Positions 106-48,829 of a DNA stretch of 64,000 nt are shown in pieces (position 1 is the first letter of the stretch; every line of letters begins with the position of its first letter). A program made the position numbers and the translations under genes. Under the pieces are notes generated by a model that worked only from the letters and a program-made list of their open reading frames with translations, had not been told where the DNA came from and searched no databases. The stretch lies in the IMG/VR virus record IMGVR_UViG_3300032676_000987. One strand, written 5' to 3'. Origin of the DNA: an uncultured virus (IMG/VR IMGVR_UViG_3300032676_000987) (taxonomy: Duplodnaviria; Heunggongvirae; Uroviricota; Caudoviricetes).

Positions 106-618
106 ATGAGCGCAGACCTTTTCAGAACATACATTGACATAATCAATGAGAACAACAATCCTGACGATGACAGCAAGCTTGGTCCCACAAACTTTCAACG
201 GTCTTTTTTCTCTGGTAAGGGACCGCAACTACCAGAACCAATGGAAATAGTAGACGATCCACAAGAGATTACTACGCTAATACACAAAGCTTATAATACT
301 CCAGATTCTGAAGAAGATCCTAACGCAGCCATCCAAGCTGCTGATGTTCGTAAAATAGTCAATTCTATTTTGCTTGATCTAGATCCATTGGAAGAACGCC
401 TAGCTAGAATGGCTTTTGGTATCGGAGTCCCTGAAATGTCTCTAGAGCAGATAGGAGAAAAGCTTGGTATAAACCGCGAAGGAATACGCCAACGACTGGA
501 TAGAGCATTGAGAAAAATTAGGTACCGAATATCAAAGAAATCAAATATAAAAAGTCCGTCTCGAAACAATAAACCGATATATGGCGCCGCCCGTGATCCT
601 AGAATCACAGGGTTATGA
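106..618 (+). CDS. Stand-alone sigma-70 region-4 (HTH) domain protein
   Basis: LDPLEERLARMAFGIG...SLEQIGEKLGINREGIRQRLDRALRKIR matches the RpoD region 4 pattern; no region 2; late promoter upstream. Confidence 0.75.
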   Translation: MSADLFRTYIDIINENNNPDDDSKLGPTNFQRSFFSGKGPQLPEPMEIVDDPQEITTLIHKAYNTPDSEEDPNAAIQAADVRKIVNSILLDLDPLEERLARMAFGIGVPEMSLEQIGEKLGINREGIRQRLDRALRKIRYRISKKSNIKSPSRNNKPIYGAARDPRITGL

Positions 619-633
619 TGTAAACGGTTATAC

Positions 634-1215
634 ATGAAAATCCAAGAACTATTTGAATCGGTAGAAGATTTTGAATTTCCAGATCCTGAGAAATCACAAA
701 AAACTCAGATTAGTGGAACCGCTCCTACCTATACAAAAGCTAAGGCACATTTAGATACTCACTCTGCGCATGGTAAAGTTTTGGATTTCGGTGCAGGGTT
801 AGGACACGGTAGTCACATTCTTGGTGCAGATACTTACGAACCATTTCCTAAAGGTAAGTTCACGCCTACGTATGATCATGCAGCAGACATTCCTAATGAC
901 AGCTATGAAAAGGTAACGAACTTCAATGTACTGAATGTGGTTCCACCTAAGACCAGAAAAGAAATCGTAAAACATATTGGTAGAGTGTTGAAGTCTGGTG
1001 GCATAGCTCTGATTACAACGCGCGGAAGAGATGTTCTTGACGCTAAAGGTAAACCGGGTCCTGAGCCAATGAGCATTGTTACAAGTACCGGCACTTACCA
1101 AAAAGGATTTACTACAAAAGAACTACAGCAGTATGTAGAATCTGTGTTGGGTGATAAATTTGAGGTTTCTCCGTTTAAGCTGGGACCGGCCGGCGTTCTG
1201 ATCAAGAAGTTATAG
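634..1215 (+). CDS. Class I SAM-dependent methyltransferase-like protein with capsid-targeting-like leader
   Basis: VLDFGAGLG motif I, YEPF, NVLNVV; N-terminus MKIQELFE. Confidence 0.7.
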   Translation: MKIQELFESVEDFEFPDPEKSQKTQISGTAPTYTKAKAHLDTHSAHGKVLDFGAGLGHGSHILGADTYEPFPKGKFTPTYDHAADIPNDSYEKVTNFNVLNVVPPKTRKEIVKHIGRVLKSGGIALITTRGRDVLDAKGKPGPEPMSIVTSTGTYQKGFTTKELQQYVESVLGDKFEVSPFKLGPAGVLIKKL

Positions 1216-1217
1216 TC

Positions 1218-1796
1218 ATGAAGATTCAAGAACTCCTAAATGAATCAGAGTTAACAGAAGTAACACGTCCCGATCAGCGGACGGCTGAGGATATTCTAGA
1301 AAAAGCAGGATATCAAAAATTAGGTCATGGGTTGTATGCTAACGTTTGGTGGAGAAAAGACAAATCCTACGTATTAAAGTTGGTTAGCTCAGATGATAGA
1401 GCGTATGCGAGATATGTTAGAATGTGCATGTCCAATCCTAATCCGCATTTTCCGAAGTTTCGTGGGTCATTCATGAGAGTCAATGATAACTATAACGCAA
1501 TTCGAATGGAAAAGCTCAGTCCTGTAGTTAGAACTAGAGACATGTACGATATGGTGAGTGTGCTAGAGAGTTATATATGGCATAGTGCTAAGCTGCTAAG
1601 CTGGCCGGCCAATCTGGAGCGTGATATTCAAGCTATGTATGTCTTAGAACAGACGCAGCCTGGTATAACTGAAGCGTGTGATCTTATCGCTACGTTACCT
1701 AAGGTAAATATGGATATGCATTTAGGTAATATCATGATGCGTGGGAAAACTATTGTTATAACTGATCCAGTGACTGGTTATGAGCGCACTAGGTAA
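1218..1796 (+). CDS. Protein-kinase-like (ePK/APH fold) protein with capsid-targeting-like leader
   Basis: Gly loop LGHGLYANV, VLK lysine, MEKL hinge, catalytic DMHLGN, ITDP; N-terminus MKIQELLNE. Confidence 0.7.
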   Translation: MKIQELLNESELTEVTRPDQRTAEDILEKAGYQKLGHGLYANVWWRKDKSYVLKLVSSDDRAYARYVRMCMSNPNPHFPKFRGSFMRVNDNYNAIRMEKLSPVVRTRDMYDMVSVLESYIWHSAKLLSWPANLERDIQAMYVLEQTQPGITEACDLIATLPKVNMDMHLGNIMMRGKTIVITDPVTGYERTR

Positions 1797-1818
1797 TTTT
1801 AGCTAAGAAAGCATTAAA

Positions 1819-2088
1819 ATGAAAGACAATGAAGTGATTGAAATTCTAGATGATGGTACGGTATACTACTTTGATTTAGCAGTATGCGATCAGCAGGCAA
1901 ATGCAGTAATCGAAGAACTTCTTGAAAAACAAAACACTGTTCCAAACTATGATTTTACTGCTACTATGTTTAGTCTGTTTGTAAAGTCAGTAGATTTTCT
2001 CAGAGAGGCTGGATGGCTGACCGAAGAATTAATTGATGAGATTGTAGATGCTAGTGAGTCGGGTGAGGAAGACGAAGCCGACGACTGA
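1819..2088 (+). CDS. Hypothetical acidic protein
   Basis: 89-aa ORF in the + gene run. Confidence 0.6.
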   Translation: MKDNEVIEILDDGTVYYFDLAVCDQQANAVIEELLEKQNTVPNYDFTATMFSLFVKSVDFLREAGWLTEELIDEIVDASESGEEDEADD

Positions 2089-2116
2089 TTTTTCTAGTGA
2101 ACTATAGTTCACTAGT

Positions 2117-2485: not shown

Positions 2486-2594
2486 ACGTTGTATTTATAG
2501 ATATGATGAAAATAAAGCACTCCTGCGATCTTTGATCCGGCTAGCCAAAATCTGACTATGCGATAAATACTATATCAGATACTGGGTTTGCGCT

Positions 2595-4088: not shown

Positions 4089-4147
4089 CACAAAATAGAT
4101 AAATAATATAAAATAGGAAAAACATAGGAAAAACAAAGGAAAAACAA

Positions 4148-16477: not shown

Positions 16478-16483
16478 ATACAT

Positions 16484-19118: not shown

Positions 19119-19292
19119 TAAAGTCTCCTGAGTTTGAAACAAAGTATTGAAAGCTGTATTCTGCCTTCGAATGTATTTAAGGTCTGTAATTAAGTAAACT
19201 ATGAGCATCTAGGAAATAGTTTCCTATGATAAATATAATGTTCGTTTCAAAAACGTTTCCTTCATTAATACGCTGTAAAGATAAATACTTAC

Positions 19293-19912: not shown

Positions 19913-20494
19913 ATGAAAATTTTAAATGAAGCCCTCGATTACATGGATCTAGAAGACCAGTTATCAGATAAGATAACGGTTGACGAATATTCTGCTAAAA
20001 TCGGTTCAGATGCAGACATAGTAACTGTCACTTTTATGGCATATTCAAAGTTGGCTGCAAAGGATTTAGTAACCTGGTTTGAACGTGGGTATACCTGGGT
20101 ATTAGATGCCAGTGTAAGCGATGGTGAAATTGAACCTGGTAAGTGGTTAGTATTTGTTGAAATGGATCGCAGATCAACTACGCCTAAAAGAATCATTTCG
20201 CTTCTTTCTGATCTTGAGACCTTAACTGGATTAAAGCTTAAGGATTGGACCGTTGAGGTTGAGGGAGAAGATTATGATGCTGACGAAGAAATTCTACATC
20301 AGGCTATTATATGCAATCCTAATGAATACAAGATTGATCGCGGCGACGACGGAAACGTTGATGACGAAAAAAACGAAAAAAACGAAAAAGATGACGGATT
20401 AAATGAAGTGAGAATTCGTGCAGGTATTGATCCGAAGGCGCCATACAATAATGATGAATACATTAAAAATATAAAATCAATGGCAGGAATGTAA
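19913..20494 (+). CDS. Hypothetical acidic protein
   Basis: ATG 19913 after GAGG; N-terminus MKILNE. Confidence 0.65.
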   Translation: MKILNEALDYMDLEDQLSDKITVDEYSAKIGSDADIVTVTFMAYSKLAAKDLVTWFERGYTWVLDASVSDGEIEPGKWLVFVEMDRRSTTPKRIISLLSDLETLTGLKLKDWTVEVEGEDYDADEEILHQAIICNPNEYKIDRGDDGNVDDEKNEKNEKDDGLNEVRIRAGIDPKAPYNNDEYIKNIKSMAGM

Positions 20495-29462: not shown

Positions 29463-29502
29463 ATCAATCAGCATAAATACTACACTACTAAGGATTTGAT
29501 TC

Positions 29503-30591
29503 ATGAAAATTAGCGATATCTATGAAAGTACGACCTCAGGCGCGATTGCTACTGTCGCACAGCCAATGGCCGGCGCAACACAAAAACGTTCAACTGTAGG
29601 CAAAGGAGTCTACGCTAATCAAAAGCCCGGGAATCTTCTTACCGGTAAGAAGACCAACAAGAAATTTGCTAATTCCCTTCATGAAGGTAAGATGAAGGAA
29701 CTCGCGTCAGATTTAGATTACCTTGACAATCTAAACTTTCAGAAAAAGTACAAGGCTACCAAAGAACAAATTAGAGCAAGATTCAAGATACAAGAAGCAC
29801 AATTAGAAGAAGACGATTTGATTCTTGTGCCAGGCCAAGGTCATAGATTGAAGACTGGATTCCATTCATTTGATCCGGATAAAGCAGAACACGAAGGTGA
29901 AACTCTAAAGAACAGTCTCAGAACAATATCACGTAATGCAAAAGAACTATATGACGTATTAGAAAATTGTGATAGTATTCCTGAATGGGTAAGTGAGAAG
30001 GTCGGCCAGATTAAGGGCATGATGACCAATGTTAATAATTACATGGTTAGCAAGAAACAACAATCAGAAGGTGTTATTGCCGCCGGTGGCGTCGGTGAAA
30101 ACCAAGAACACTTCGATCATGAGATAAGCATGGCTAAGAGCGAAATGCGTAGCGCTGCTAAAGCCGCAAAAAGAATCTATCAAATGCTAGATGAGCGTGA
30201 TGAATTAATGGCATGGCAGCAAAGCTATATCACTTTAGCTAGTGACTATCTAGGTAGCGTAGCTGATAGCATGGAAGAAGAGTTAAGCGAAGGTAAACAG
30301 GGCGGCGAGAAAGAAGTACAAGATTATAAGAAGTGGCGCAAAGACAATCACGACGATCTAGGCACCACTAGAAAAATCATCAGTAGAGAACCTAGCAAGG
30401 GTAGCCCCTGGCAAGATATGGAAGACTTCGGTAAGAAGGTAACTGACGAAGGTGCCAAAGTAGATCGCATGGTTAAGCACATTGCTAAGTCAGAACGTGA
30501 AGCCGGCAAGCCAGCAAAGAAAGCAACAGATATTGCATGGGCCACGGTCAACAAGCGTGGCTATCTAGATAACAAAAACAAAAAGGGTTAA
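29503..30591 (+). CDS. Multi-module probable head-packaged protein
   Basis: MKISDIYE leader; two copies of an [ED]HE..[LM].K..[LM]R......LY..L......W module; C-terminal IAWATVNK ChaB-like motif. Confidence 0.65.
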   Translation: MKISDIYESTTSGAIATVAQPMAGATQKRSTVGKGVYANQKPGNLLTGKKTNKKFANSLHEGKMKELASDLDYLDNLNFQKKYKATKEQIRARFKIQEAQLEEDDLILVPGQGHRLKTGFHSFDPDKAEHEGETLKNSLRTISRNAKELYDVLENCDSIPEWVSEKVGQIKGMMTNVNNYMVSKKQQSEGVIAAGGVGENQEHFDHEISMAKSEMRSAAKAAKRIYQMLDERDELMAWQQSYITLASDYLGSVADSMEEELSEGKQGGEKEVQDYKKWRKDNHDDLGTTRKIISREPSKGSPWQDMEDFGKKVTDEGAKVDRMVKHIAKSEREAGKPAKKATDIAWATVNKRGYLDNKNKKG

Positions 30592-30595
30592 CTGC

Positions 30596-32578: not shown

Positions 32579-32582
32579 GATT

Positions 32583-33872
32583 ATGCGAGCCATAGAGTTT
32601 CTAATTGAATATGATAGAAACAAAACCGCACAGACACTAGGTACTGGTCTCATTCCTGCATTTGCTAAGGATATGGGCGCCATTAGTGGTAATATGATGG
32701 TATACAGGCAATTCGCTAGAGAAGTTCTAGTACCTGGTAATAAGGCTACTGAGGCCGACAAAGCCGACATAATTCAACACATATTGCAGGCTATAGAAGA
32801 AAAAGATCCAACACCAAATAAAGAATACACTCAGTGGCTTGCTAGAATGTATGCTAAAGGTGGAGTGAAGTTAGAGGACTTAAACAGAGGAAATCTACTT
32901 GGTATCTACAATTTAGGTAAGAAACGCAGGATGATTAAACCAGAACATGCTGATATTAATCGATTCAAAAACTACAAAGAATTTGAAGATACTATGCTGA
33001 GTAATTATGATTTAGATCAGATTGAAGGTGCGGATTCTGCAAAAGCTAAAGAAAAGGGTCAGGCTAACACAATATTTGACAATGAACAAGTACGCATAAT
33101 TGTTCCTGAGGACGAAGCCGCTGCATGTTACTATGGAAGAGGCACCCGCTGGTGTACTGCTGCAACTAAAGGAACGAACTACTTCAAAAATTATAGTAGT
33201 CAAGGTAAATTGTATATCTTGATACCAAAACATCCTAAACGCGACGGTGAAAAATACCAAATACATTTTCAAACCGGTTCATTCATGGATGAAGCCGATT
33301 CTCCAGTAAACGTAGAGGAATTAATTACCAAAAGATTTGGAGATTTGTCCTCATTCTTTAGAGAAAATGAACCAGCAATTAAAAACAGCATATTATTTGC
33401 AGATGACGACGTTCTGACTTCGGTTATTACTAAAATTAGTCAAATAGCTATGGATAAGGCATACGAAGAAATTGCGGAATGGGAACAGAATGACGATTAT
33501 TATTATCGAGACATGAGAGAACTTTATGGCGATGAGGACGGAGATATTGATTGGGACGCAGCATATGCAGCAGGTAACGATTATATGTCTTGGAATCCAG
33601 ATGCTAAAGAATGGGTGGATAATATTGAAAGCATAGTTACACCATCACCGCGTCATCTGAAGGCCTGCACGCAAGAGATGACACAAGAAGGTGATTATGT
33701 CGGTGTCGGAATAGATGACACACCAAGCATAATATCAGACATGTTGTTAAACCATTTTAGAGGTAGCCGACTACATGACACTGGTATTGCTAAATATTTG
33801 GTAAAGAACGTTCTTGTACAAAAAAAGAAAGATGGTAGCTGGGACGTAGATTTGATCGAAAGAAACAAATGA
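32583..33872 (+). CDS. WCT-motif (PcfJ-like) domain protein with capsid-targeting-like leader
   Basis: MRAIEFLIE; DPTPNKEYTQWL; AACYYGRGTRWCTAA; paralog of the 47437 gene. Confidence 0.65.
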   Translation: MRAIEFLIEYDRNKTAQTLGTGLIPAFAKDMGAISGNMMVYRQFAREVLVPGNKATEADKADIIQHILQAIEEKDPTPNKEYTQWLARMYAKGGVKLEDLNRGNLLGIYNLGKKRRMIKPEHADINRFKNYKEFEDTMLSNYDLDQIEGADSAKAKEKGQANTIFDNEQVRIIVPEDEAAACYYGRGTRWCTAATKGTNYFKNYSSQGKLYILIPKHPKRDGEKYQIHFQTGSFMDEADSPVNVEELITKRFGDLSSFFRENEPAIKNSILFADDDVLTSVITKISQIAMDKAYEEIAEWEQNDDYYYRDMRELYGDEDGDIDWDAAYAAGNDYMSWNPDAKEWVDNIESIVTPSPRHLKACTQEMTQEGDYVGVGIDDTPSIISDMLLNHFRGSRLHDTGIAKYLVKNVLVQKKKDGSWDVDLIERNK

Positions 33873-34990
33873 GAGCCCGAGAATTCATCTCTGAAAATGA
33901 ACCGCTCAACGAGTTAACTGGTTATAAGAAAGATCCAGTGTATTCTCTGTTGCAGAACAGCAGAAATATGGAAGAATTTTTGGATGCCTTAAAACTGGCA
34001 GGATATCAGCAATACGTATTAGGCTCAGGTTGTTTCGGCACAGCATTCAAGCGTCCCGGCGAAGACAGTATCATCAAGCTTTGGAAAGATGATCCTGCAT
34101 ATGACACCTATCTTTCTTTTGTGTTACAGAATCAATCTAACCCACATGTTCCAAAGATTATTGGCCGCCCAGTAAAGTTATTGCGCAGATTTAATCTAAT
34201 GCGAATGGAGTTGTTGGATAACAAAAATCTATTCACTTTAGAGAGAAAAAATATTAGATATCAGATACAAGAATATTTAGAGGTATATCCGCGGCGCCCA
34301 TACGCAGAAGAAACTACACTTTTTGAAGAATTCCCTCAACTAAAACCAGTTTTGGATTTTATTAGAAGTGCAGCAGGTGGAACCGTTGTAATAGATGTAG
34401 GTATAAGTAACATACTTTGGAGAAAAGGTGACATTCCTGTTATCACTGATCCTATTGCTGATGTTGAGAAGCTGAGAGAAACCATCAGTACTGGTCAGGG
34501 CGGAGGTTCGGCCGGGATAGGCGGCGGATCGATGGTCGGGGGTCCAACTACATATGAACAAGAGTATGGTCAATTCAAAACCAAAGGACCTCATCGTATT
34601 ACTGCTATGACATATGAGGATTTTTCATCAGAAAATAAGATTACATTGAAACAGTTGTATAGTAAGGGTCTCCCAGATCACGATGAGATGATTTGGAATT
34701 TTGTAGGTGACTCAGACTTTAATGTACCTTTTACAGTTCAAACTATTTCACCAGTTAAACTGGAACTACTATTTAAAAGTCAATATGGCGTAGATCATAT
34801 CGATGAAATTTATGACATGCTAGATTCTGATCAAGAAGATATTGTAGATTCATATAGATCAGATCCTAATTTATCAAATAGTATTATTGTCATGAACGAC
34901 GGAATTGTAGTCGACGGGCATCATCGTGCATTAGCAGCGATATTAAATAGGAAACCAATTAAGTACGTGGATGTGAGTCAAGAAGCATAA
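33869..34990 (+). CDS. Kinase-like domain plus ParB/Srx-like domain protein
   Basis: MRAREFISE; LGSGCFG..IIKL..NPHVPKI..MELL..DVGISN..ITDP; C-terminal VVDGHHRALAA. Confidence 0.7.
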   Translation: MRAREFISENEPLNELTGYKKDPVYSLLQNSRNMEEFLDALKLAGYQQYVLGSGCFGTAFKRPGEDSIIKLWKDDPAYDTYLSFVLQNQSNPHVPKIIGRPVKLLRRFNLMRMELLDNKNLFTLERKNIRYQIQEYLEVYPRRPYAEETTLFEEFPQLKPVLDFIRSAAGGTVVIDVGISNILWRKGDIPVITDPIADVEKLRETISTGQGGGSAGIGGGSMVGGPTTYEQEYGQFKTKGPHRITAMTYEDFSSENKITLKQLYSKGLPDHDEMIWNFVGDSDFNVPFTVQTISPVKLELLFKSQYGVDHIDEIYDMLDSDQEDIVDSYRSDPNLSNSIIVMNDGIVVDGHHRALAAILNRKPIKYVDVSQEA

Positions 34991-35011
34991 ATAGTCTATA
35001 GGATTACAAAC

Positions 35012-35457: not shown

Positions 35458-36486
35458 ATGAGAGTTACAGAATTTCTATCCGAAAATGTATCTAAACCAA
35501 TGATTGGTTCAGCTAAAAAACCGGCAAACGAGTTGACTGAATCTGTAGGACATTTCCTATCAGAGATTCTTTCTGAGGCATCTACTGCAATGTCCGCAGT
35601 TAGAAACAGCCCATATGCTGATCAACTCATAAAGACAATTCACAGTAGCTTATCATTGCCTCATAATCAAGAATGGGCTCCGGTAGATTCTATTAGTTGG
35701 ACTGATGTTAAGGATTATGCACCTAATTTTGTTCTTATGGCAGGTACTAAAGGAACCGCTGCTGTAAAATGGGCAAGTGGACATTATTATTTGGTAACTG
35801 CGAATAGTGAAGGTATACAGACTGATAGAATTACTAGTATAAACGCAGCAGCTAGCCAAATTAAATCTAATATCGGTAAAATAACTGGATTTTGGATTAA
35901 TCCTAAAACGTATCGTGTTCGTGGACCTGGCGCTTATCACAGTGCTGCACATGGATCTGAAACTTCAGTAGATCAACTTCGCACAAAACGCAGAGAAGCA
36001 AAGGCCCTAACTATTCCTAATATGTATGATATAAACCGCGGGTCATCGCATAATAGACAGGTACTATTGGCTAAGTTACGTCCTCTGTTAGGAAAATATG
36101 TTCAACAAGCATTAGCGGACGTTAAAGGAGCCGTTGGTATTTCTATTAAGAATGACGCATTCGATAGAGCCAAGAAAAAGTTACAAGTAGCAAAGCGTCT
36201 ACAAGAATTGTACGACACTCTGGAACAAGCAAAGTCAGTACAGGCTTTGCCGCCTGTGCTTAATCAGACGCTAAATTTAGCTATATTGATGGCAGCAGGT
36301 TATTATTATCCTGAAGAAACCGGAAACATTAGTCGCGGCGGTGGTCCCCGCGATCATTATAGATCAGATTCTATTTCTGTTTATTCCGCCGGTCCAAATA
36401 AGGTTATTGCTGATATCATCAACGGGGATACTAAAAAGTTATCAACTGTGATGGCCTTCCTCAAGCAAGAATTGGTGCACGGATAA
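35458..36486 (+). CDS. Hypothetical protein with capsid-targeting-like leader
   Basis: ATG 35458 follows the dps stop; MRVTEFLSE...ELTE...FLSEILSE. Confidence 0.65.
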   Translation: MRVTEFLSENVSKPMIGSAKKPANELTESVGHFLSEILSEASTAMSAVRNSPYADQLIKTIHSSLSLPHNQEWAPVDSISWTDVKDYAPNFVLMAGTKGTAAVKWASGHYYLVTANSEGIQTDRITSINAAASQIKSNIGKITGFWINPKTYRVRGPGAYHSAAHGSETSVDQLRTKRREAKALTIPNMYDINRGSSHNRQVLLAKLRPLLGKYVQQALADVKGAVGISIKNDAFDRAKKKLQVAKRLQELYDTLEQAKSVQALPPVLNQTLNLAILMAAGYYYPEETGNISRGGGPRDHYRSDSISVYSAGPNKVIADIINGDTKKLSTVMAFLKQELVHG

Positions 36487-36491
36487 AAATC

Positions 36492-37472
36492 ATGAAAACT
36501 AGAGTAAATCTCACTGAGACTATAGCTGCTAAAATAGCAAATGATCCAAAAACAGAAAAAATGATCGCATTGGCTCTTCGCCATGATCATACCTTTCCTG
36601 CTGCAACAAGGGCGTCGATTGGCCCAAACGCATCTGACCATGACATCGCACTACTTTGGGCTAATATGGTAGACAATGCTTTGGCCAATTCTGAATATGG
36701 TGATCTATCCAGAGATGGTAAGTTTGATCAGTGGTTGCTTAGACTATATATGAATCACGTTGCTGATTATGAAGATATATCAGGTGAAGGAGTACCTGCT
36801 CTTGGTCAATGGAAGGCACTTAGTATTCGTAATCTCCTTCGCCCAGAACATCAAGACTTTAATAGATTTCGTTCTTTAGAACAATTATATAATGTAGTTC
36901 GTAGCAGAGAATACAGAGACGCATTGGCCAGAATTAAAGATGCTGAGCGTATTGCAAAGATGAAGCGAGACAAAAAGGAAATCATTTTGATTAATGACGA
37001 CCGCTTTTTTGTCATGGTACCATTGAATTACGGTTCTTGCTATACATTCAACAATGAAGAGGGTGTTCAGGCATCATTCTGTACTGGTAGCAGTGACGGT
37101 GAACGTTGGTTCAACCGATATTCTAAAGACGGTCCGATTGTGAGTATCATCGATAAGAAAAACATGAATGACCCTAAGGGAAAGTGGCAAATGCATTCTC
37201 AGACTAATCAGCTAGTAGATGCAAACCAAAATAACAGAGGCTATCCGCACCGTAATGATGCTGAATTTGCTGAATTATTTCCGGGATTGATGAAGCAAAT
37301 TGTTAGTGCTTTAGAAAAACATTCAGAAGACCTCAAACAAGCCTCTAAGGATATGGGAATTACACACGGTGGGTGGAACATCGCAGAAGAAGTAGGTCGA
37401 ATAAAACGTGATTTCCCAACAGCATTTGCATCAGAACCCAAAGAAAATCCTGAACAACCCGAATTGGCTTAA
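36492..37472 (+). CDS. Divergent WCT-motif (FCT) domain protein
   Basis: QWL, VPLNYGSCY...ASFCTGS, WFNRY...G, KWQMH; leader MKTRVNLTE. Confidence 0.6.
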   Translation: MKTRVNLTETIAAKIANDPKTEKMIALALRHDHTFPAATRASIGPNASDHDIALLWANMVDNALANSEYGDLSRDGKFDQWLLRLYMNHVADYEDISGEGVPALGQWKALSIRNLLRPEHQDFNRFRSLEQLYNVVRSREYRDALARIKDAERIAKMKRDKKEIILINDDRFFVMVPLNYGSCYTFNNEEGVQASFCTGSSDGERWFNRYSKDGPIVSIIDKKNMNDPKGKWQMHSQTNQLVDANQNNRGYPHRNDAEFAELFPGLMKQIVSALEKHSEDLKQASKDMGITHGGWNIAEEVGRIKRDFPTAFASEPKENPEQPELA

Positions 37473-37475: not shown

Positions 37476-39746
37476 ATGCGAGTAACAGAATTCATCGCTG
37501 AGGGCTACAAAGAAGTAGCGCAGAAATATATTAACTCAGGAGTACCTGCAGAGGATGTACAAAGAGCCATCGCCGCCTTTAAGGAACTCGTCAACAAAAA
37601 TCAAGTTAGTGGCACTGAGCGAAATATTGACTGGTGGGGAAAGAAGTCCTTTAGTGAGTTTACGCAGTTTGTAAATTCTATCGATCCATCAAGAACAAAA
37701 AGACAACTAAAGCGCGGAAAGATTCCTGGAAAAAGTATTACATTGGTTGACAATGACAAGTGGCTTGTCATTGTTCCTCTAGATAAAGATGCAAGTTGTT
37801 TCTATGGTAAAAATACTGATTGGTGCACAGCCAAACGTGCTCCAGGTCATTTTGAACAACACTTCTATCAAGATGAATCTATTTTAATATATTGTATCAA
37901 TAAACAGTCCGGCGCCAAGTGGGCAATCGCGTCACACACGGTAACCAACCTAATGCCTTCTGACAACACTATGCGAGGATCAGAATACGACGGGGATACT
38001 CAATATTTTGATGCAGAGGATGACGAAATTTCTCACAGTTCATTTGCAGCAGAAACTAAGTTATCTTCAGAAAAATTACTCAACCTAGCTTTACAAAAAA
38101 AGGATAAAATTGAATTAGCTAGAGTACCGCACTCTAGCGCAGTAACTCGCGTAAAGGATTGGTTATACGGCCCGAGAAGCTACGTGGATCGTGATTTATC
38201 TATAGAAAAGGATCTACTTTTTATCAATAATACCAAATATACATATGATTATATCTCAGAACTAGTTAGTAATAATGTAGATGTATCTAAAATACCGGAT
38301 CGATTATTAGTAGATGCAGCAGTATATAGTCCTTCTGTATTGAGATGCATGAACCCTCAACCAAATGAAAAGGTATTAAGAGATATTGTAATTGAAGTTC
38401 CGGACGCAATTCAGGTCATCAAGAATCCTTCACTGGAAGTACAAAAAATAGCAGTCACCGAATATCCTGCTGCTATTCTACTTATTAAAAATCCAAATCC
38501 TAATACAGTTAAGCTAGCAATTACCCTTGATCCTAAATTAGAGAAGGCACTAGTCAAAGATAATTCTACAAGTGAATTAGACGAAGACTGGAAATCAGCC
38601 GCTAAAGGTATGGGCGTAGCTGCAGGATTAGCTTTGGGTATGCACGGTATGCCCAACAAGACAGTAGAACCAGTTACGCCACACATGCCGGTATCACATC
38701 AGGTGCAATTACCTAAGGTTGATCCTGCTGTAGTAAAGCAAACGCTGTCCGGGTTAACTAACCCATATGGTGTAGCACTTAGACGAGCAGCACAGGCAGC
38801 TGGCATCACCGGAACCGAACTTGCGCAGTTTCTGGCACAATGCGCACATGAGACACAAAATTTTTCGTCACTAAAAGAGTTTGGCGGAAAATTAGATTTT
38901 AAGAAATATGATCCTAAATATAATCCAGAAAAAGCAAAGCTATTGGGTAACACACATCCAGGAGATGGTGCACGATATCACGGGCGAGGATTCATTCAAT
39001 TAACAGGTAGAGAAAATTACCGTAAGGTAGGAAAAGCCTTAGGTTTACCATTAGAGCAGCAACCTGAACTTGTTGAACGACCAAACGTTGCAGCCAGGGT
39101 TGCTGTTTGGTTTTGGCAAAACAGAGTTGCACCTAAGGTTACTAATTTCAACAATACTCAGGCTGCGACTAAACCAATTAACGCAGGGCTGCATGGTCTT
39201 GAAGATAGAGTAAACAAATTTAATGCTATTATGCAAGTAATAGCTAATAATCATAGATCAACACCTTCGCCAGTAAACGAGTATAAAGTTGATAACGACA
39301 TAAATGGTGAAGGTCTTGGTGCTACTGGATACAATGCGAATGTAGCGTACAGAGGAATGCGTGTTCTTATGCGTCCTAGCACATTCTTATCTTTGGCACT
39401 ACCTTTAGATAAACCAGTATCAGTAGAGCATATAAAACAACATATGCAGGCCGGCGGAGCATTAGGTTCACCATTTTTAATTTTTGATTTTCCCGTTGAA
39501 TGGGAAGACGGTGATTTCAGCGAGTCAGCTAGAATAGTAGGACACGAAGGTCGTAACCGTATATTGGCTATTCAAGATTTAGAAGGTGACGATCCGGTAG
39601 AGGTTCATATGTTTGGATTAGGTGAACTTCGTGCTAGACATTTAACTCCTGAAATCGTGAAGCATCTTCAAACAGGGATGCTTAATCAAAATAAAAGCAA
39701 GTTAATTACTCCTATTAAGGGTGATGTTCTTTTTAAAAGAATATAA
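37476..39746 (+). CDS. Multidomain protein: WCT domain, helical repeats, GH19 lysozyme and ParB-like domain
   Basis: MRVTEFIAE; ASCFYGKNTDWCTA; IKNPS.EVQ repeats; AQFLAQCAHET, GRGFIQLTGRENY, AVWFW; GHEGRNR. Confidence 0.75.
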   Translation: MRVTEFIAEGYKEVAQKYINSGVPAEDVQRAIAAFKELVNKNQVSGTERNIDWWGKKSFSEFTQFVNSIDPSRTKRQLKRGKIPGKSITLVDNDKWLVIVPLDKDASCFYGKNTDWCTAKRAPGHFEQHFYQDESILIYCINKQSGAKWAIASHTVTNLMPSDNTMRGSEYDGDTQYFDAEDDEISHSSFAAETKLSSEKLLNLALQKKDKIELARVPHSSAVTRVKDWLYGPRSYVDRDLSIEKDLLFINNTKYTYDYISELVSNNVDVSKIPDRLLVDAAVYSPSVLRCMNPQPNEKVLRDIVIEVPDAIQVIKNPSLEVQKIAVTEYPAAILLIKNPNPNTVKLAITLDPKLEKALVKDNSTSELDEDWKSAAKGMGVAAGLALGMHGMPNKTVEPVTPHMPVSHQVQLPKVDPAVVKQTLSGLTNPYGVALRRAAQAAGITGTELAQFLAQCAHETQNFSSLKEFGGKLDFKKYDPKYNPEKAKLLGNTHPGDGARYHGRGFIQLTGRENYRKVGKALGLPLEQQPELVERPNVAARVAVWFWQNRVAPKVTNFNNTQAATKPINAGLHGLEDRVNKFNAIMQVIANNHRSTPSPVNEYKVDNDINGEGLGATGYNANVAYRGMRVLMRPSTFLSLALPLDKPVSVEHIKQHMQAGGALGSPFLIFDFPVEWEDGDFSESARIVGHEGRNRILAIQDLEGDDPVEVHMFGLGELRARHLTPEIVKHLQTGMLNQNKSKLITPIKGDVLFKRI

Positions 39747-40775: not shown

Positions 40776-40825
40776 GATAAGAAAGCTGCTGATAGTGATA
40801 GTTAGTATATTTGGAGATATGTATT

Positions 40826-42899: not shown

Positions 42900-44007
42900 T
42901 TTTTTTCTTCTGTTAGCTACTCCAGCTTTTGCTAGTATTGGTGCAATAACAGATTTTAAAGGCGGCGGACAAATAAAACGTTCATCTTCTACTATACCGG
43001 CAAATAAAAGTTCAGGTATAGAGAAGATGGACACCATCATAACTAATAGTCAGGGTAAGTTTGGAATTACATTTAATGATCAGACTAAAGTTAACATTAC
43101 TGAAAATAGTAAATTAGTCATTGATGATTTTGTATATGATGATAATGAGAAATCTAAAGGAAAACTTGGACTTAAAGTAGCTTTAGGAACAGTACGATAT
43201 ACCTCCGGAGCAATTGCTCACAACAATCCAAATTCAGTAGATATTAGAACTCCAACTGCCACCATAGCTGTTCGTGGAACAGATTTCCTTATGTCTGTAG
43301 ATGAAGTAGGAAGAACTACAGTAATTTTAGTTCCAGAATGCTTTATGAATAATGGTGAGATTAGAATGGATAAAGAATGTGAAACTGGAGCTATTGAAGT
43401 AGCTACTGCTGCTGGAGTAGTTAAAATGGATAAACCATTCCAGGCTACAGTCGTAGAAACATCTTCTGGTCCCCCAAGCACTCCATCAGTAATTAGTATG
43501 GAAGGAAGATCGGCAGATAATAATATTCAACTTTCAACTCCTTCTCTTGAAGGAGGAGCTAATCTATTAACACAAGCTAGAAAAGATATTAAGAATAAAG
43601 TAAATCCAGCTGGGGCGGCCGCAGACAATAACCAAGATCCTAATACTGGAACGGATGATTTAAATCAAGTGTTTGCTGCTCTTCAAAGAACTCCAACTCC
43701 GTCAGAATTATTACAAGTATATGAAGAATATAATTCTGATGCTCCATTAAAACAGACTTTATATACAGATATTTCTCCACTTTTGAAAAAACAAATTCAA
43801 ATTGGTTGGGCATATTCTTTATTATCTCAAGCTAAACTAGAAGTTGTTACTGTGGTTTTACCAAAAGCAACTGGTGTAGATATTACAACAATACAAGACG
43901 GATCTTATGATTATTATAACTTCTCTGAGCAGAAATGGCCAACATCAGGAACCGGTAGACCAAATGGTCATATAACTATAATTCAAACTAATATAGCAAA
44001 TAAATAA
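42856..44007 (+). CDS. FecR-domain periplasmic protein
   Basis: Signal-like N-terminus; I.F.D.T.V.I.ENS.LVID.FVYD, TPTATIAVRGTDF, G.IEV; start may be ATG 42868. Confidence 0.8.
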   Translation: MLEIMVTLTLRLATSFFLLLATPAFASIGAITDFKGGGQIKRSSSTIPANKSSGIEKMDTIITNSQGKFGITFNDQTKVNITENSKLVIDDFVYDDNEKSKGKLGLKVALGTVRYTSGAIAHNNPNSVDIRTPTATIAVRGTDFLMSVDEVGRTTVILVPECFMNNGEIRMDKECETGAIEVATAAGVVKMDKPFQATVVETSSGPPSTPSVISMEGRSADNNIQLSTPSLEGGANLLTQARKDIKNKVNPAGAAADNNQDPNTGTDDLNQVFAALQRTPTPSELLQVYEEYNSDAPLKQTLYTDISPLLKKQIQIGWAYSLLSQAKLEVVTVVLPKATGVDITTIQDGSYDYYNFSEQKWPTSGTGRPNGHITIIQTNIANK

Positions 44008-44026
44008 TTAAAACGGGGATTATACT

Positions 44027-46063
44027 ATGAAAAAGATTCTTCTATCGCCTTGGCTTGCGATTATTACTTTTGCTCTATTACTTACTATTAAAATATCCAA
44101 TCCATTTTTGGTAGATGCAATCAAATTAAAATACTATGATTATCTTATGCGTGGTCCAGCAAAACAGTCTGAACAGATTGTAATTGCAAATATATCAGAT
44201 AAGACTATAGAGAAATATGGACAATATCCTTTTCCAAGAGAAACTTATTCTAAAATAATCAACGATTTGTATTTACATCGTGTTGGTGTAATTGGAAATA
44301 CAATAATCTTTTCTGAACCAGATAGATTTAATACAGACAAAAATCTTACTGCTACTTTAAAACAGCATCCAATAATTTTATCTCAGACACTATCGACGCA
44401 ATCTAAGCCAAATCAAAATATTCGTAAAACTGGTGTGGCTATAATTGGAGATGGTAAAACTACACAGTTTTTGCCAAATTATCCTTCAGTTCTTAATAAT
44501 ATTTCAGAATTTCAAGATGCTGCTGTTGGTATTGGTGTAACTTCTACTTTACCGGAATCTGATGGTGTTGTTCGCCGTGTACCTTTATTATCAATGTCTC
44601 AAGGTGAATACTATCCATCTTTTTCTATGGAAATGTTAAGAGCAATTTCCGGTGATCCATCTTATCAAGCTAAGATTAACGAGACTGGTGTGGAAGCTTT
44701 AAGAATTCCATCATTCAATACTATTAAAACAGATGAGTACTCTAGAGTATTTGTGAACTGGAACTATAAGTTTACTCAATTTGATATTGGAGACAAAACT
44801 CCAGATTTGCTTAATAAAATTGTAATTCTTGGTGTAACTGCTTCAGGTGTGGCCAATCCAGTAGCTACTCCAGTTGGTGCACAATTTCCACAAGCAGTTC
44901 AAGCTAGTCTTCTTCAAACTCTAATTAATGGAGATACAGTTTCTATTCCAAACTGGGCTGGAATATTGGATTATGCACTTTTAGTAGTATTGGCTCTCGG
45001 AATCATTTTGTTATCTAAAGTAAGATTCTCTGTAGTTTGGATTATAGCTCTTATTGGTGTTTATCTTTACTTCCCCGTTTATATGTTTAATCATAATCAT
45101 ATTCTAATAGATGTAACATTTAATGCACTTATTGCAATGATACTTTATTTGCACATTTATACAATCAAGTTTATCTCAGAATTCTTACAGAAGCAACAAA
45201 TCAAAAAGCAATTTGGAACTTATCTATCTCCAGCTATGGTTGAAAAATTACAAAAGAATCCAGAACTATTACAACTTGGAGGTGATTCTAGAGAACTTTC
45301 TATTATGTTTACAGATGTTCGTGGATTTACTACTATTTCTGAACATTACGGCAAAGATGTTCAAGGTCTTACAAAGATCATGAATCGCTATATGACTGCG
45401 ATGACAAAAGCAATTCTAGAGAACAACGGCACCCTCGATAAGTACATAGGTGATGCTCAGATGGCATTTTGGAATGCACCTCTTAGTAATCAACAACACG
45501 CTAAGGATGCTGTCAAGACGGCGTTTGAGATGATGAAGGCATTAGAGAGATTTAACGATGAGATTACACTGGAAGGAGTCCCGGCTTTTGGAATGGGCCT
45601 CGGTATTAATACTGATACTGTGGTTGTTGGTAATATGGGTAGCACTCAGCGGTTTGACTATACTTGTCTTGGGGACGGCGTCAATCTTGCATCTCGCCTC
45701 GAAGGTCAATCTAAACCGTACGGGGTCAAAATCATCATCGGACCAAAAACTGCCGAATACGTGAGAGATGAATATCAGGTAGTAGAACTTGATCTTATTG
45801 CAGTCAAAGGAAAAACTGAACCGGCTCGCATCTATACTGTCCTATCTTCATATGATGCATCGGGAGAAAAACAACACTTGAGATTCTTGGATAGCTATCG
45901 TAAGGGTGAATGGGACTCTGCTAGAACATATGCTTCTAATATGAAGAAGTTCTGGAGCGGAGAGCTAAACAAGTACTACACGGAAATGATTGACCGTATA
46001 GAGGAATATGCTAAGAATCCACCAGTTAACTGGGATGGAGTGTATAGGGCAACTTCAAAGTAA
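44027..46063 (+). CDS. CHASE2-domain class III adenylate/guanylate cyclase
   Basis: N-terminal TM; GQYPFPR, DGVVRRVPL, KIVILG; three TMs; MFTDVRGFT, DKYIGDA, DYT.LGDGVNLASRLEG, VKGK. Confidence 0.9.
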   Translation: MKKILLSPWLAIITFALLLTIKISNPFLVDAIKLKYYDYLMRGPAKQSEQIVIANISDKTIEKYGQYPFPRETYSKIINDLYLHRVGVIGNTIIFSEPDRFNTDKNLTATLKQHPIILSQTLSTQSKPNQNIRKTGVAIIGDGKTTQFLPNYPSVLNNISEFQDAAVGIGVTSTLPESDGVVRRVPLLSMSQGEYYPSFSMEMLRAISGDPSYQAKINETGVEALRIPSFNTIKTDEYSRVFVNWNYKFTQFDIGDKTPDLLNKIVILGVTASGVANPVATPVGAQFPQAVQASLLQTLINGDTVSIPNWAGILDYALLVVLALGIILLSKVRFSVVWIIALIGVYLYFPVYMFNHNHILIDVTFNALIAMILYLHIYTIKFISEFLQKQQIKKQFGTYLSPAMVEKLQKNPELLQLGGDSRELSIMFTDVRGFTTISEHYGKDVQGLTKIMNRYMTAMTKAILENNGTLDKYIGDAQMAFWNAPLSNQQHAKDAVKTAFEMMKALERFNDEITLEGVPAFGMGLGINTDTVVVGNMGSTQRFDYTCLGDGVNLASRLEGQSKPYGVKIIIGPKTAEYVRDEYQVVELDLIAVKGKTEPARIYTVLSSYDASGEKQHLRFLDSYRKGEWDSARTYASNMKKFWSGELNKYYTEMIDRIEEYAKNPPVNWDGVYRATSK

Positions 46064-46215
46064 CTTACAATATGTTATATGTTTATAGTAGTGTTATACA
46101 TACTAAATATATATCTCAAGCTCCTTAATAGGTTCTTGTGGGTACCAATATAAGACTTACACAGGTACCAATACACTGGCCTTAAAAGCCAGATTAACAA
46201 AAGGAAATACAATCT

Positions 46216-46776
46216 ATGAATAAGTTATTCTTGATCGCAGCACTTGCGGCGGCTGTTGCTACTCCGGCTCTTGCTGAATCTATCACCGGTGAAGTTCGTA
46301 CTATTGATCCGCAACCTGCTAAGATAGCAAACTCAACTGAATATCGTCTAACCTATAGTGAAACTGTTGCCAATATTGCTAATGTCGGCGCCGAGTTCAC
46401 CGGGTCTCAACCGTATCATAACGGTACTCTAAACAGCAAGATCGTGCTGCAAGGCGGCCCTGCACTTCCCACAGTTGCAGGATTTACTCCTGCTGCTTAT
46501 GGTGAGTATGGCCGTTCACTGAACACTAATAAGGACTTTAACTTCTGGGGATACGGTGCTTCTGTTTCGCATGAAGTATACGGCCCGGTATCAGTAAACG
46601 TTGGTTATCGTCATCGTCAAGGACCTAACACTCCTACCTTTACAGAAGATCGTCTTAACGGCGGTGTCGCTTTTGCTATCACCGAAGATAATATTGTAGG
46701 TGTAAATTACTATCGCACTCGTAGCAATAGTGTCACCTCTGACATCTTGGGTGTTAACTATACTCGCAACTTTTAA
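46216..46776 (+). CDS. Outer-membrane beta-barrel protein
   Basis: Sec signal (…AVATPALA); alternating amphipathic strands; C-terminal VNYTRNF with terminal Phe. Confidence 0.7.
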   Translation: MNKLFLIAALAAAVATPALAESITGEVRTIDPQPAKIANSTEYRLTYSETVANIANVGAEFTGSQPYHNGTLNSKIVLQGGPALPTVAGFTPAAYGEYGRSLNTNKDFNFWGYGASVSHEVYGPVSVNVGYRHRQGPNTPTFTEDRLNGGVAFAITEDNIVGVNYYRTRSNSVTSDILGVNYTRNF

Positions 46777-46797
46777 TAAAACTTGAACTGATTAAAG

Positions 46798-46825
46798 TAA
46801 CGGCGGGGAGCAATCTCCGCCGTTA
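46798..46825 (+). terminator. Intrinsic terminator-like hairpin
   Basis: TAACGGCGGGGA-GCAA-TCTCCGCCGTTA. Confidence 0.7.
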
Positions 46826-46849
46826 TTCATATGTAAGATAAATATATTC

Positions 46850-47425
46850 ATGATCGGAAATGAAATCATTCTAGAGTCTGCTGCTAGTGAGTTAGCCAAA
46901 AAGCTACCATCTTTAGAAAAGCACGACTATAACACTATTGACCAACTAATGCGAAAGATTGCTGCTAAGCATCACATTACTGGTAAGGCCCTGCACGACC
47001 TTTTTGTGAAGCGATATAGCTCTACACCTGACAGTTGGATCAAAAATAAGTTAGATGAAACCGATGAAGAATTAAATATTCCCGAAGAAGTACAAAAGTT
47101 TGCAGAATGGGCTTCACGTAGAGTTCATCTAAAGAATCCCATTAAAGTAGACCTCAGCTACGACACCGAAGAAGCTCAGCATAATCATCATACTGGCAGG
47201 CACACTGAAGGTGATCCCACGATCTGGGTTTATGCTAAGAACAGAAACCTAGTAGATATTCTTAGAACGGTATTCCATGAAATCGTACACTGTCGTCAAA
47301 GTGAACTAGGTATGATTAAGCCTGGTGACAGCTATCCTGGTAGCCCAATCGAAGCGATGGCCGACCTCTTAGCTGGCAAATACATTAAAATTTATGGTGA
47401 ACGTCATCATTATATATTCCAATAA
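46850..47425 (+). CDS. Two-module protein with HExxH metallopeptidase-like domain
   Basis: ILRTVFHEIVHCRQ...SPIEAMA; N-terminal module shared with the C-terminus of the 26048 gene; leader MIGNEIILE. Confidence 0.7.
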   Translation: MIGNEIILESAASELAKKLPSLEKHDYNTIDQLMRKIAAKHHITGKALHDLFVKRYSSTPDSWIKNKLDETDEELNIPEEVQKFAEWASRRVHLKNPIKVDLSYDTEEAQHNHHTGRHTEGDPTIWVYAKNRNLVDILRTVFHEIVHCRQSELGMIKPGDSYPGSPIEAMADLLAGKYIKIYGERHHYIFQ

Positions 47426-47436
47426 TTGGTGTATAC

Positions 47437-48829
47437 ATGCGAGCAAATGAATTTCTTATTGAATATGACAGAACAAAGACCGCCGCTACTTTGGGTGATA
47501 AGCTCATTCATGTTGCGTACGAAGATAACACCTATAGGACCTATAGGTCCGGAATAACACCATCTGATATTTTAGAAAAGATAGAGACTAAGGATCCAAC
47601 TCCAAATAAAGAATATACTCAGTGGTTGGCTCGTATGTATGCCAAAGGCGGAGTACCGTTCGAAGACCTAAACAGAATGGATGTTTTAAGTTCATATAAT
47701 ATAGGCAAGAAGAGAAGACAAATTCAACCAGAAGACGCTGACATCAACAAATTTAAAACATATAAAGAATTTGAAGATACCATGATGTCAAAGTATTCAC
47801 AATTGAATACTGATCCGAAGGAGGTCAACAAAGGAAAATCTACTCTTTATTTTGAAGATGATAATGTAAGAATAATCATACCAGAAGATGAGGCAGCAGC
47901 ATGTTATTATGGTAGAGGCACGCGGTGGTGTACAGCAGCCACAAAGGGTGAAAATTATTTCAATCATTATAATACAAAAGGCAAGATATATATAATTCTA
48001 TTCAAGAAATTTCCGAACAAGTGGCAGTTTCATTTTGAAACTGCCCAGTTTATGGATGAGGCTGATAATGAACTCGGTATAGAACAAGTAAGATCAGTCT
48101 CGCATTATTTTTCTAAAAAGATATGGAATGATGCGTTTATCAATCGTCCAGCTGAGATGTTAAAATACATAAAAAACCCAACTGAGAAACAAAAAATAGC
48201 AGCAGTTACGGATTCGGCATTGCTAGCTCTAGAATATATAAAAAATCCAAGTAATGCAGTTAAATTAGCAGCAATAACATCCGATCCTGAGATAATTCAA
48301 TACATAGAAAACCCAACTGAACAAATGCAACTAGTTGCAGTTGAGTCTGATGGATACCTTATTCGTTATATAAAAAATCCAAGTAATGCGGTTATGATGG
48401 CCGCGGTTAAAACTAATCCGATGTCTATGAAACGCTACATATATAGATAATCCACCAGAAGAGGTTCAACTGGCTGCGGTCCGAAGAGACATACGTGCAT
48501 TTATATATATAAAAAATCCTACCGAAAAAGTACAATTTGAAACAGTTTCTAAAAATGGATTCCTTATAAGGGATATCACAAATCCTTCAGCCCAAATACA
48601 ACTTGCGGCGGTAACTGATGCGGCGTCCGCAATACGATTTATACAAAACCCAACCGAACAAGCACAAATGCAGGCTATTAACTCTGAAACGTACCATATT
48701 CAGAATATAAAAAACCCCACCGAAAAAGTACAATTGGCTGCTGTTCGAAGAGACATGCGTGCATTTGACCTTATAAAAAACCCAACAGACAAAGTTAAAG
48801 CTTTGGTTGCTAAACTAAAAGCAAAGTAA
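47437..48829 (+). pseudogene. WCT-domain plus IKNP helical-repeat protein, frameshifted in an (AT)n tract (ORF 47437-48450, continuation 48446-48829)
   Basis: MRANEFLIE; the repeat array YIKNP[TS]E..QLAAV continues for 127 codons in the +1 frame after TACATATATAGATAATCCA. Confidence 0.75.

Follow-up and report, generated by a model that had tools for sequence, protein, structure and literature searches.

An exchangeable T4-like N-terminal leader on largely unrelated proteins of an uncultured jumbo myovirus-like phage, a probable label for head packaging

The N-terminal capsid-targeting sequence (CTS) of bacteriophage T4 is the textbook case of a virus that loads chosen proteins into its head, four of them non-structural. 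IPI, IPII, IPIII and Alt carry this tag of about ten residues, which ends in F-[IL]-x-E and is removed by the gp21 protease, the cleavage consensus of which is [LI]-x-E. Incorporation into the head requires no more of IPIII than its first ten residues, and fusion to the CTS leads to the packaging of foreign proteins (PMC9026906). As described in the same source, targeting depends mainly on residues 4 and 7 and processing on residues 8 and 10; gp21 itself starts with a LIE-9 site, and cleavage takes place after the glutamyl residue (PMC9026906). Here we describe a short leader of similar form at the N-termini of proteins encoded in a stretch of 64,000 nucleotides (hereafter the window) of the uncultured virus IMGVR_UViG_3300032676_000987 (Caudoviricetes) and in a larger genome record that contains the window. 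An earlier note on the window had listed twelve such N-termini, all of which are present where it placed them, and had read them as leaders of the T4 IPII/IPIII type that load a set of enzymes into the head for injection with the DNA. Proteins are named below by the window position of their first codon (Table 1).

Related labels are known from other phages. In T-even phages, the CTS is all that the diverse products of the internal-protein loci have in common (Rao and Black 2010, PMC3012670). As here, a conserved label stands on a varied set of proteins that are thought to counter host defences, although the T-even sets are small anti-restriction proteins from one locus, whereas the leader genes of the present phage are distributed among several operons, with known enzyme families among their products. 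In the phiKZ-like phages 201phi2-1, phiKZ and SPN3US, a divergent homologue of gp21 cleaves many head proteins behind a Glu, and the propeptides have been inferred to target proteins to the prohead (PMC5694885, PMC9026906). As described there, these propeptides mostly exceed 100 residues and end in S/A-x-E, whereas the leaders described here have 8-9 residues with Leu or Ile at P3. A further parallel is found in the polyvalent proteins of phages and conjugative elements, for the domain repertoire of which packaging and injection have been predicted (Iyer et al. 2017, PMC5512222). No paper on such leader sets outside the T-even and phiKZ-like phages was found in a literature search that left subscription journals largely uncovered. 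The CTS concept, the portability of the CTS and the diversity of T-even internal proteins are already established. What is new, as far as it can be predicted from sequence, is that a distant jumbo lineage has a short leader of the T4 type, that at least 16 proteins bear it, including many enzymes, and that it recurs in hundreds of metagenomic proteins.

The source of the window is an uncultured jumbo myovirus-like phage in the neighbourhood of PA5oct and Atu_ph07, distant from T4. Its G+C content is ~40%, and almost all of its genes lie on the plus strand. Its family B DNA polymerase shares 45-46% identity with the polymerases of Sinorhizobium phage Phosso, the Pseudomonas PA5oct group and Agrobacterium phage Atu_ph07, all of which are jumbo myoviruses and distant relatives of T4; a megablast search with 11 kb of the window returned no match among cultured phages. 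Three IMG/VR contigs contain DNA identical to the window. G001, the largest of the IMG/VR records with window DNA (258,859 bp; 73% complete by CheckV), carries the window on its reverse strand, with small indels separating the two. The whole of G001 was used for the motif test, which thereby covers a proteome of 330 open reading frames (ORFs; greedy longest-ORF calls) instead of the 72 genes of the window.

The core of the leader observation lies far beyond chance. The form M[KR]x(2-4)[LI]xE stands at the first start of 18 of the 330 ORFs (19 when alternative starts are counted), as compared with a chance expectation of ~1 from internal positions, or ~2.6 given Lys or Arg at position 2, where these residues occur in 59 N-termini. 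The narrower form M[KR]xx[ED][FLIV][LIF]xE opens 9-10 proteins at an expectation of 0.02, and MR[AV]xEF[IL]xE opens 7-8 proteins and is found at none of 71,873 internal positions. A loose form, with [LI]xE, Glu at 6-10 and any second residue, gives 32 N-termini against 14.5 expected; without the Lys/Arg class 14 are left against ~12, that is, no enrichment. Sixteen leader proteins were kept, nine in the window and seven elsewhere in G001. In at least these 16 the leader takes the form M-[RK]-x-x-[ED]-[FL]-[IL]-x-E, the Glu being residue 9 in twelve proteins and residue 8 in the other four, and all 16 have Leu or Ile at P3. No replication enzyme among the G001 ORFs has the strong motif, as the proposed proteome scan had anticipated. 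Two of the N-termini in the window stand at internal ATGs of longer ORFs, 19913 in one opening at GTG 19901 and 35458 in one opening at ATG 35416; the closest homologues of the 35458 protein begin at the inner Met.

The 16 proteins are the M[KR] matches that were left after removal of the peptide deformylase (MKLELLKE), the Pfam domain of which begins at residue 4 and which has no ATAAATA context, and of two weak matches at G001 18983 and 226521 that have no further support. The C-terminal half of the DNA polymerase (51759, MNLTKIILE), a match to the loose form, was likewise rejected as a member, in that it aligns from residue 10 to internal sequence of the PA5oct polymerase, the gene of which is split at another site than that of the window phage.

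The resemblance to the T4 CTS extends to individual residues. In the T4 record NC_000866, IPIII and IPII both begin with MKTYQEFIAE, the leader that the earlier note had quoted, and its last five residues, EFIAE, are identical in the leader of the 37476 protein. By alignment, the targeting and processing residues of the T4 CTS map to the conserved Phe, [IL] and Glu of the leaders here, which are one residue shorter and start with MR or MK rather than MKT. Both phages encode an S77 protease, and in both the tag sits on unrelated mature proteins that include an enzyme (Alt in T4). They differ in lineage, the present phage being a jumbo phage with a DNA polymerase only ~45% identical to its best cultured relatives, and in the size of the set, with at least 16 tagged proteins here, seven of them outside the window, against four non-structural cargo proteins in T4 (PMC9026906, table); the set is thus larger than that of T4, as had been supposed. 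The cargo here, read from sequence alone, is mostly enzyme-sized (127-756 amino acids, aa), whereas that of T4 consists of small basic proteins.

The proteins behind the leader appear to be largely unrelated to one another. After removal of the first 14 residues, blastp at 1e-3 joins 32583, 47437, 36492 and 37476 into one group, termed the 'WCT' family, 1218 and 33869 into a kinase-like group, and two small proteins from outside the window into a third; the remaining leader proteins are singletons. At least 11 groups that are unrelated by this measure bear the leader. The leader proteins outside the window include an Fe/Mn superoxide dismutase and an NT5C-type deoxynucleotidase, the Pfam domains of which begin at residues 18 and 17, respectively.

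As judged from the homologue families, the leader is a modular add-on that ends exactly at the Glu, where conservation breaks in the WCT, kinase and 35458 families. WCT homologues carry either MRAYEFITE or MRLQELFE before the common continuation ALSPAAIEATSGRFG, and members of the kinase family have MRIxE, MKLNE, MRATEFITE or, as the window protein does, MRAREFISENEPLNE ahead of the mature start LTGYK, all of these leaders ending in Glu. Among 95 homologues of the methyltransferase core, three have the core leader and the rest have quite different N-terminal extensions; in one homologue MRAQEFIVE stands ahead of a 70%-identical core. In the 35458 family, [LIV]xE followed by [AD..]S[TS] occurs within the first 70 residues of 102 of 125 full-length representatives, with the Glu at a median position of 19, and in two of the 125 in a control window at residues 100-170. 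The propeptide of this family ends with [LIV]xE followed by AST, and the window protein has such a site at Glu40 and MRVTEFLSE in front. The portable leader of about nine residues proposed in the earlier note is therefore well founded in the unrelated cargo groups, the leader swaps at the Glu and its rarity on the methyltransferase core. It is extremely improbable that the similarity was simply inherited by paralogues with a common N-terminal domain and that there is no portable tag. The four WCT proteins are indeed paralogous, as are 1218 and 33869, and conservation in the WCT family runs past the Glu, but the 11 or more groups are dissimilar after the trim, the superoxide dismutase, NT5C and methyltransferase Pfam domains are unrelated folds, leaders are swapped on identical continuations and 92 of the 95 methyltransferase-core homologues are without the core leader.

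The same leader residues are written with different codons (AGA/CGA, GAA/GAG, TTT/TTC and ATT/ATA/ATC/CTA/CTT) and the upstream DNA is unrelated; therefore, selection acts on the peptide. Among the listed homologues of the 47437 protein, 101 of 120 open with the core leader, and in several others it follows a wrongly called start. A signal of the nucleic acid or of translation start in place of one in the peptide, for instance through the codons chosen behind the AUG or through a recombination cassette, would be in keeping with the many genes that have ATAAATA 3-7 nt before the ATG, as the start-codon region may carry signals. However, the varied codons, the differing upstream DNA and the retention of the peptide in so many diverged homologues leave this explanation with hardly any credence.

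A candidate enzyme for leader removal is encoded in the head module. The gp21-like protease that the earlier note had proposed to look for elsewhere in the genome is the product of a Peptidase_S77 gene (PF03420, 89-90 bits, cut-off 27) ~4.4 kb upstream of the window. Comparison with the structure of T4 gp21 (5JBL) gives an E value of 1.3e-12; a His in EVDHPDD (Ala in the 5JBL chain) and a Ser in SSRGSG, aligned to SRG, occupy the columns that we take to be the catalytic pair. The head genes follow the order portal, acidic protein, protease, scaffold-like protein and major capsid protein, the last of the Gp23 type (327 bits). The scaffold-like protein of 363 aa thus takes the place of T4 gp22. 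It has 19 [LI]xE sites, or 5.2 per 100 aa where the genome averages 0.93, and ranks first in this density among the 179 G001 proteins of at least 150 aa. Leu or Ile is found at P3 of 19 of its 46 Glu residues, as compared with 17.7% genome-wide (binomial p 1.6e-4), whereas Ser or Ala at P3 (6 of 46) is at genome background. The N-termini of the major capsid protein (MSKVLLE), the scaffold-like protein (MLDAIKPLLE) and the protease (MALYLRE) have an end of the [LI]xE type. Processing of the phiKZ type, at S/A-x-E, was rejected for this phage in view of the P3 residues of leaders and scaffold.

It is probable, by analogy with T4, that the leader acts as a capsid-targeting sequence that loads its cargo into the head, that the S77 protease removes it and that the cargo leaves with the DNA. 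The leader genes would be transcribed late from promoters of the ATAAATA type, and the leader would dock each protein on the scaffold core during prohead assembly. The S77 protease, encoded between the portal and major capsid protein genes, would then cut after Glu8 or Glu9 of the leader, cut the scaffold at many [LI]xE sites and trim the short N-termini of the major capsid protein and of itself. The freed cargo, which would comprise a methyltransferase, truncated kinases, a ParB/Srx-like domain, a GH19 muramidase, an Fe/Mn superoxide dismutase, a deoxynucleotidase, 'WCT' proteins and others, would remain in the head and exit with the DNA at infection.

Two other roles of the peptide have to be weighed at this point. 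The leader may be only a propeptide that the protease removes, perhaps to hold enzymes in an inactive state up to the time of head maturation, with targeting residing elsewhere in the proteins or with some of the proteins not in the head. The universally conserved features are limited to the cleavage-type residues [LI]-x-E, and the propeptide of the 35458 family shares this end motif with a different body. This is unlikely, however, as unrelated cargo proteins have in common Arg or Lys at position 2 and E-F at positions 5-6, which a cleavage site alone would not need, and as the same ten residues serve both targeting and processing in T4 (PMC9026906). Furthermore, propeptide substrates must also reach the prohead, because a prohead protease acts inside proheads. 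The second alternative is another address or a degron, directed to phage Clp/DnaJ machinery, to the membrane or to export via a phage-borne CsgG/CsgF channel. The window encodes ClpA/B-like, DnaJ, CsgG and CsgF proteins, and cleavage of a WCT leader would expose a Tyr. We hold this to be highly unlikely, since the leaders have neither a hydrophobic span nor a signal-peptidase site, and since they are close to the experimentally defined CTS of T4 and end in a protease-type motif that is enriched in the scaffold and present on the major capsid protein and the protease.

The expression context is consistent with loading of the head by the leader. The late promoter of T4 is TATAAATA, and ATAAATA is read here as a putative late promoter on that basis. 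This string occurs in 91 copies, about the frequency expected from base composition, and 45 of them lie within 60 nt upstream of a start on the same strand. All 16 leader genes stand 0-3 genes behind an ATAAATA, compared with 181 of all 330 genes, although this test is weaker than the raw numbers because the 16 genes share about nine operons. The earlier placement of the leader genes in late-promoter operons agrees with these counts, the late-promoter identity being putative. Twelve of the 45 start-near motifs end 3-7 nt before the ATG (e.g. 16474-16480, 19281-19287 and 46838-46844); if ATAAATA is a -10-type late promoter as in T4, those genes would give leaderless or nearly leaderless mRNAs. 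A second cluster of ATAAATA lies 18-26 nt upstream of starts, with a Shine-Dalgarno-like GGA.

PA5oct is the nearest cultured lineage with virion mass spectrometry, in which 93 of 461 proteins were detected (Lood et al. 2020, PMC7318152). Only three of the leader proteins have PA5oct homologues, namely gp205 (WCT), gp261 (superoxide dismutase-like) and gp296 (homologue of the doubtful 19913 protein). The first two are flagged through tandem mass spectrometry with electrospray ionization (ESI-MS/MS) as virion-associated, and gp261 has ..YISIAE at residues 8-13. Leaders of the MKI type are found in PA5oct itself on gp150 (MKINDIITE) and gp238 (MKIKDILVE), which are positive by mass spectrometry, and on gp271, which is not; such leaders are few in PA5oct, and none is of the MRAxEF type. 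The scaffold-like gp153 was not detected in virions, as expected for a degraded protein.

Set against the reading that the leader loads cargo into the head are the following points. Packaging, cleavage and, above all, injection are steps that we infer by analogy, and taking ATAAATA for a late promoter is an analogy with T4, whereas the promoters reported for PA5oct, TATAATA/TTGAC, differ from it. The virion data come from PA5oct, a distant relative, and give weak support: gp296 is not among the detected virion proteins and differs at its N-terminus, and three of ten PA5oct genes with an M[KR] motif (gp150, gp237 and gp238) are positive by mass spectrometry as compared with 93 of 461 overall, numbers too few for significance. 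The PA5oct paper is silent on leaders and processing, its supplement S5 giving peptide counts and coverage (PMC7318152). The gene calls are greedy ORFs made for this analysis, and G001 falls short of a complete genome. Chance matches to the motif occur, as the peptide deformylase and the polymerase half illustrate. Since WCT proteins also conserve YDRxKTA after the Glu, their leader may belong to a longer N-terminal element. Finally, coiled-coil heptads could account in part for the [LI]xE excess of the scaffold.

The leader set extends beyond the earlier note by the seven proteins outside the window, but the list of that note itself becomes shorter and more uniform. Nine of its twelve members (634, 1218, 29503, 32583, 33869, 35458, 36492, 37476 and 47437) stand above chance and three (106, 19913 and 46850) do not; 46850 (MIGNEIILE) and 106 (Glu at 15, outside the enriched class) are individually unsupported because the loose motif class shows no enrichment, and 19913 is doubtful. 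Six of the twelve belong to two paralogue groups by trimmed blastp, four WCT proteins and two kinase-like ones, so that 'otherwise unrelated' holds for the groups and not for each member. As for the cargo labels, the sigma region 4 domain of the 106 protein is real but its leader is not above chance, the ParB-like label of the C-terminal domain of the 33869 protein is weakly supported by fold alignment and finds no Pfam match, and the metallopeptidase label of the 46850 protein is unconfirmed, with an HExxH string and no family match. The proposal of T4 IPII/IPIII-type loading thus retains the S77 protease, the [LI]xE-dense scaffold, the modularity and the ATAAATA context in its favour, and gives up three members, full independence of the others and some of the labels.

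Other labels hold. The methyltransferase is assigned by PF13489, the kinase-like proteins by phrog_15752 together with Foldseek, and the muramidase by PF00182, although neither the 1218 nor the 33869 protein, which are paralogues, has a Pfam kinase match. The N-terminal domain of the 33869 protein has a kinase fold according to Foldseek (E 6e-4, prob 0.99, over ~165 columns to GCN2, MK2 and other kinases), gives kinase rows in VIA up to Z 6.6 and matches phrog_15752 at E 1.2e-6; in its model, residues 1-16 have a predicted local distance difference test score (pLDDT) below 50, and the C-lobe region is poorly modelled. Its C-terminal domain (residues 285-373) aligns in VIA to Osa (4ovb; Z 5.8, root-mean-square deviation (rmsd) 2.8, 83 aligned) and to sulfiredoxin (6ky4; Z 5.6, rmsd 3.4, 75 aligned), both below the Z of 8 from which VIA matches are safe; these are the only non-kinase rows among the best 50 VIA rows listed. 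Pfam at E<=10 gave no match to this domain, and nothing useful for the C-terminal 157 aa of the 37476 protein or for the 1218, 35458 and 46850 proteins, the first of these having no match at all. The 46850 protein matches no peptidase family, only DUF5329 (18 bits, below the cut-off) and phrog_10346, and for the 29503 protein no Pfam or PHROG profile reaches its cut-off. In the 37476 protein, the GH19 domain (PF00182) scores 49.8 bits (cut-off 25.5) at residues 446-589, and phrog_181 endolysin matches at E 1e-43. The AlphaFold model of the 47437 protein has a pLDDT of 92.9 overall and of 61 over the first 10 residues; its WCT domain has no Foldseek match at E<=0.001, and the best VIA rows, acetyltransferase-like chains at Z 5.1, are within noise.

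The cargo also overlaps with the polyvalent repertoire, as described for it, in a kinase without a C-lobe, a ParB-like domain, a fusion of ParB and lysozyme, a methyltransferase and GNAT, and metagenomic homologues carry ART-PolyVal. However, polyvalent proteins fuse 2-15 domains in one chain, whereas the proteins here are mostly encoded by separate genes with a leader each, so that the putative loading signal is explicit. Only 33869 (kinase and ParB-like) and 37476 (WCT, GH19 and C-terminal domain) are multi-domain, the other leader proteins having at most a single recognisable domain. By analogy, this overlap fits delivery into the host without being proof of it.

It is quite possible, and proposed here tentatively, that a large, mostly uncultured clade of T4-related jumbo phages uses an exchangeable label of 8-9 residues to define a whole injected enzyme set, which would number at least 16 proteins in the present phage. 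If so, the 'first-minute' effector repertoire of such phages could be read from metagenomes, as secretion signals allow for bacterial effectors, and the label could serve for filling non-T4 capsids with foreign proteins. If the tag functions as it does in T4, a simple sequence rule would find phage-delivered proteins, candidates for counter-defence and host take-over, and the tag would explain 'metabolic' enzymes in virion proteomes, such as the superoxide dismutase-like gp261 of PA5oct.

Table 1. Leader genes, doubtful members and ATAAATA motifs in the window
Feature	Position	Strand	Remarks
S-adenosylmethionine (SAM) methyltransferase, leader MKIQELFE (codons 1-8, 634-657)	634..1215	+	PF13489 30.3 bits, cut-off 27; strong motif
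Kinase-like protein, leader MKIQELLNE (1218-1244)	1218..1796	+	phrog_15752 (T7 0.7-type kinase) E 1.3e-13
362-aa protein, leader MKISDIYE (29503-29526)	29503..30591	+	First gene behind ATAAATA 29473-29479
'WCT'-family protein, leader MRAIEFLIE (32583-32609)	32583..33872	+	PA5oct homologue gp205, 'structural protein, ESI-MS/MS'
Leader MRAREFISE (33869-33895), NEPLNE, kinase-like N-domain, Gly-rich linker, putative ParB/Srx-like C-domain	33869..34990	+	
342-aa protein, leader MRVTEFLSE (35458-35484), second site [LIV]xE before AST at Glu40 (35575-35577)	35458..36486	+	
'WCT' paralogue, weaker leader MKTRVNLTE (36492-36518)	36492..37472	+	
756-aa protein, leader MRVTEFIAE (37476-37502), 'WCT' domain, GH19 muramidase, C-terminal domain	37476..39746	+	
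'WCT'-family protein, leader MRANEFLIE (47437-47463), C-terminal DUF4116-like repeats	47437..48450	+	
Doubtful member, sigma-70 region 4 protein, ..DIINE ending at residue 15	106..618	+	PF04545 38.6 bits
Doubtful member, MKILNE at internal ATG	19913..20494	+	phrog_13138 'virion structural protein' E 1e-17
Doubtful member, MIGNEIILE, HExxH string	46850..47425	+	Loose motif class; ATAAATA 5 nt upstream
ATAAATA promoter-like motif	81..87	+	Heads run 106, 634, 1218
ATAAATA promoter-like motif	29473..29479	+	Heads run 29503-34990
ATAAATA promoter-like motif	34987..34993	+	Heads run 35012 (Dps-like, no leader) to 39746
ATAAATA promoter-like motif	46838..46844	+	Heads 46850 and 47437

Some observations concern the leader genes and their homologues. 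A second N-terminal type, M(T)SDLAKLMEYIDxLQSE or MAFDxxSxLIxKxRxLE, occurs in the metagenomic homologues P0220-P0267, where it precedes ART-PolyVal, DUF6934 and ParB-like modules; a different clade of phages may use it as an address label. At 32583-32612 and 47437-47466, a cut after the Glu of the WCT leader would expose an N-terminal Tyr (..FLIE followed by YDR). An N-terminal Tyr is a bacterial N-degron for ClpS/ClpAP. It is pure speculation that the exposed Tyr, together with the ClpA/B-like ATPase of the phage (21877-24141), could make short-lived effectors. The second operon of leader genes is headed by a Dps/ferritin-like protein (PF00210, 75 bits; 35012-35455) that is itself without a leader. 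A second GH19 protein (26.4 bits; 10700-11323), also leaderless, lies among tail-fibre-like genes and may be an endolysin or a tail enzyme.

In the head module, the portal gene (G001 reverse strand 122386-125445, ~7-10 kb upstream of the window) encodes 1019 aa with a large HNH-like insert, possibly an intein or a homing-endonuclease insertion. Just upstream of the window start, on the G001 reverse strand at 132298-132960, an ORF directly behind the major capsid protein and HNH genes has a GNAT-like text motif after an internal start MKISEM.. and may be a further short-leader candidate, with the Glu at position 5.

Between two runs of leader genes lies an envelope and signalling block (40811-46776), which is unusual phage cargo. 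It encodes the curli-secretion homologues CsgF (50 bits) and CsgG (176 bits), a secreted repeat protein (42093-42899), a FecR-domain protein, a protein with CHASE2 and adenylate/guanylate cyclase domains (129 and 72 bits) and an outer membrane protein-like product with a signal peptide. The family B DNA polymerase is encoded in two parts (49165-53003), between which the opposite strand carries a gene for an HNH/NUMOD-type endonuclease (50805-51704); the PA5oct polymerase is likewise split by a homing endonuclease, at a different position. At 54166-63293, a DNA modification set of the 7-deazaguanine type comprises GTP cyclohydrolase I (209 bits), PTPS/QueD (58 bits) and a radical-SAM QueE-like protein, beside which are encoded a 516-aa protein without a Pfam match, an HhH-GPD protein and two glycosyltransferases.

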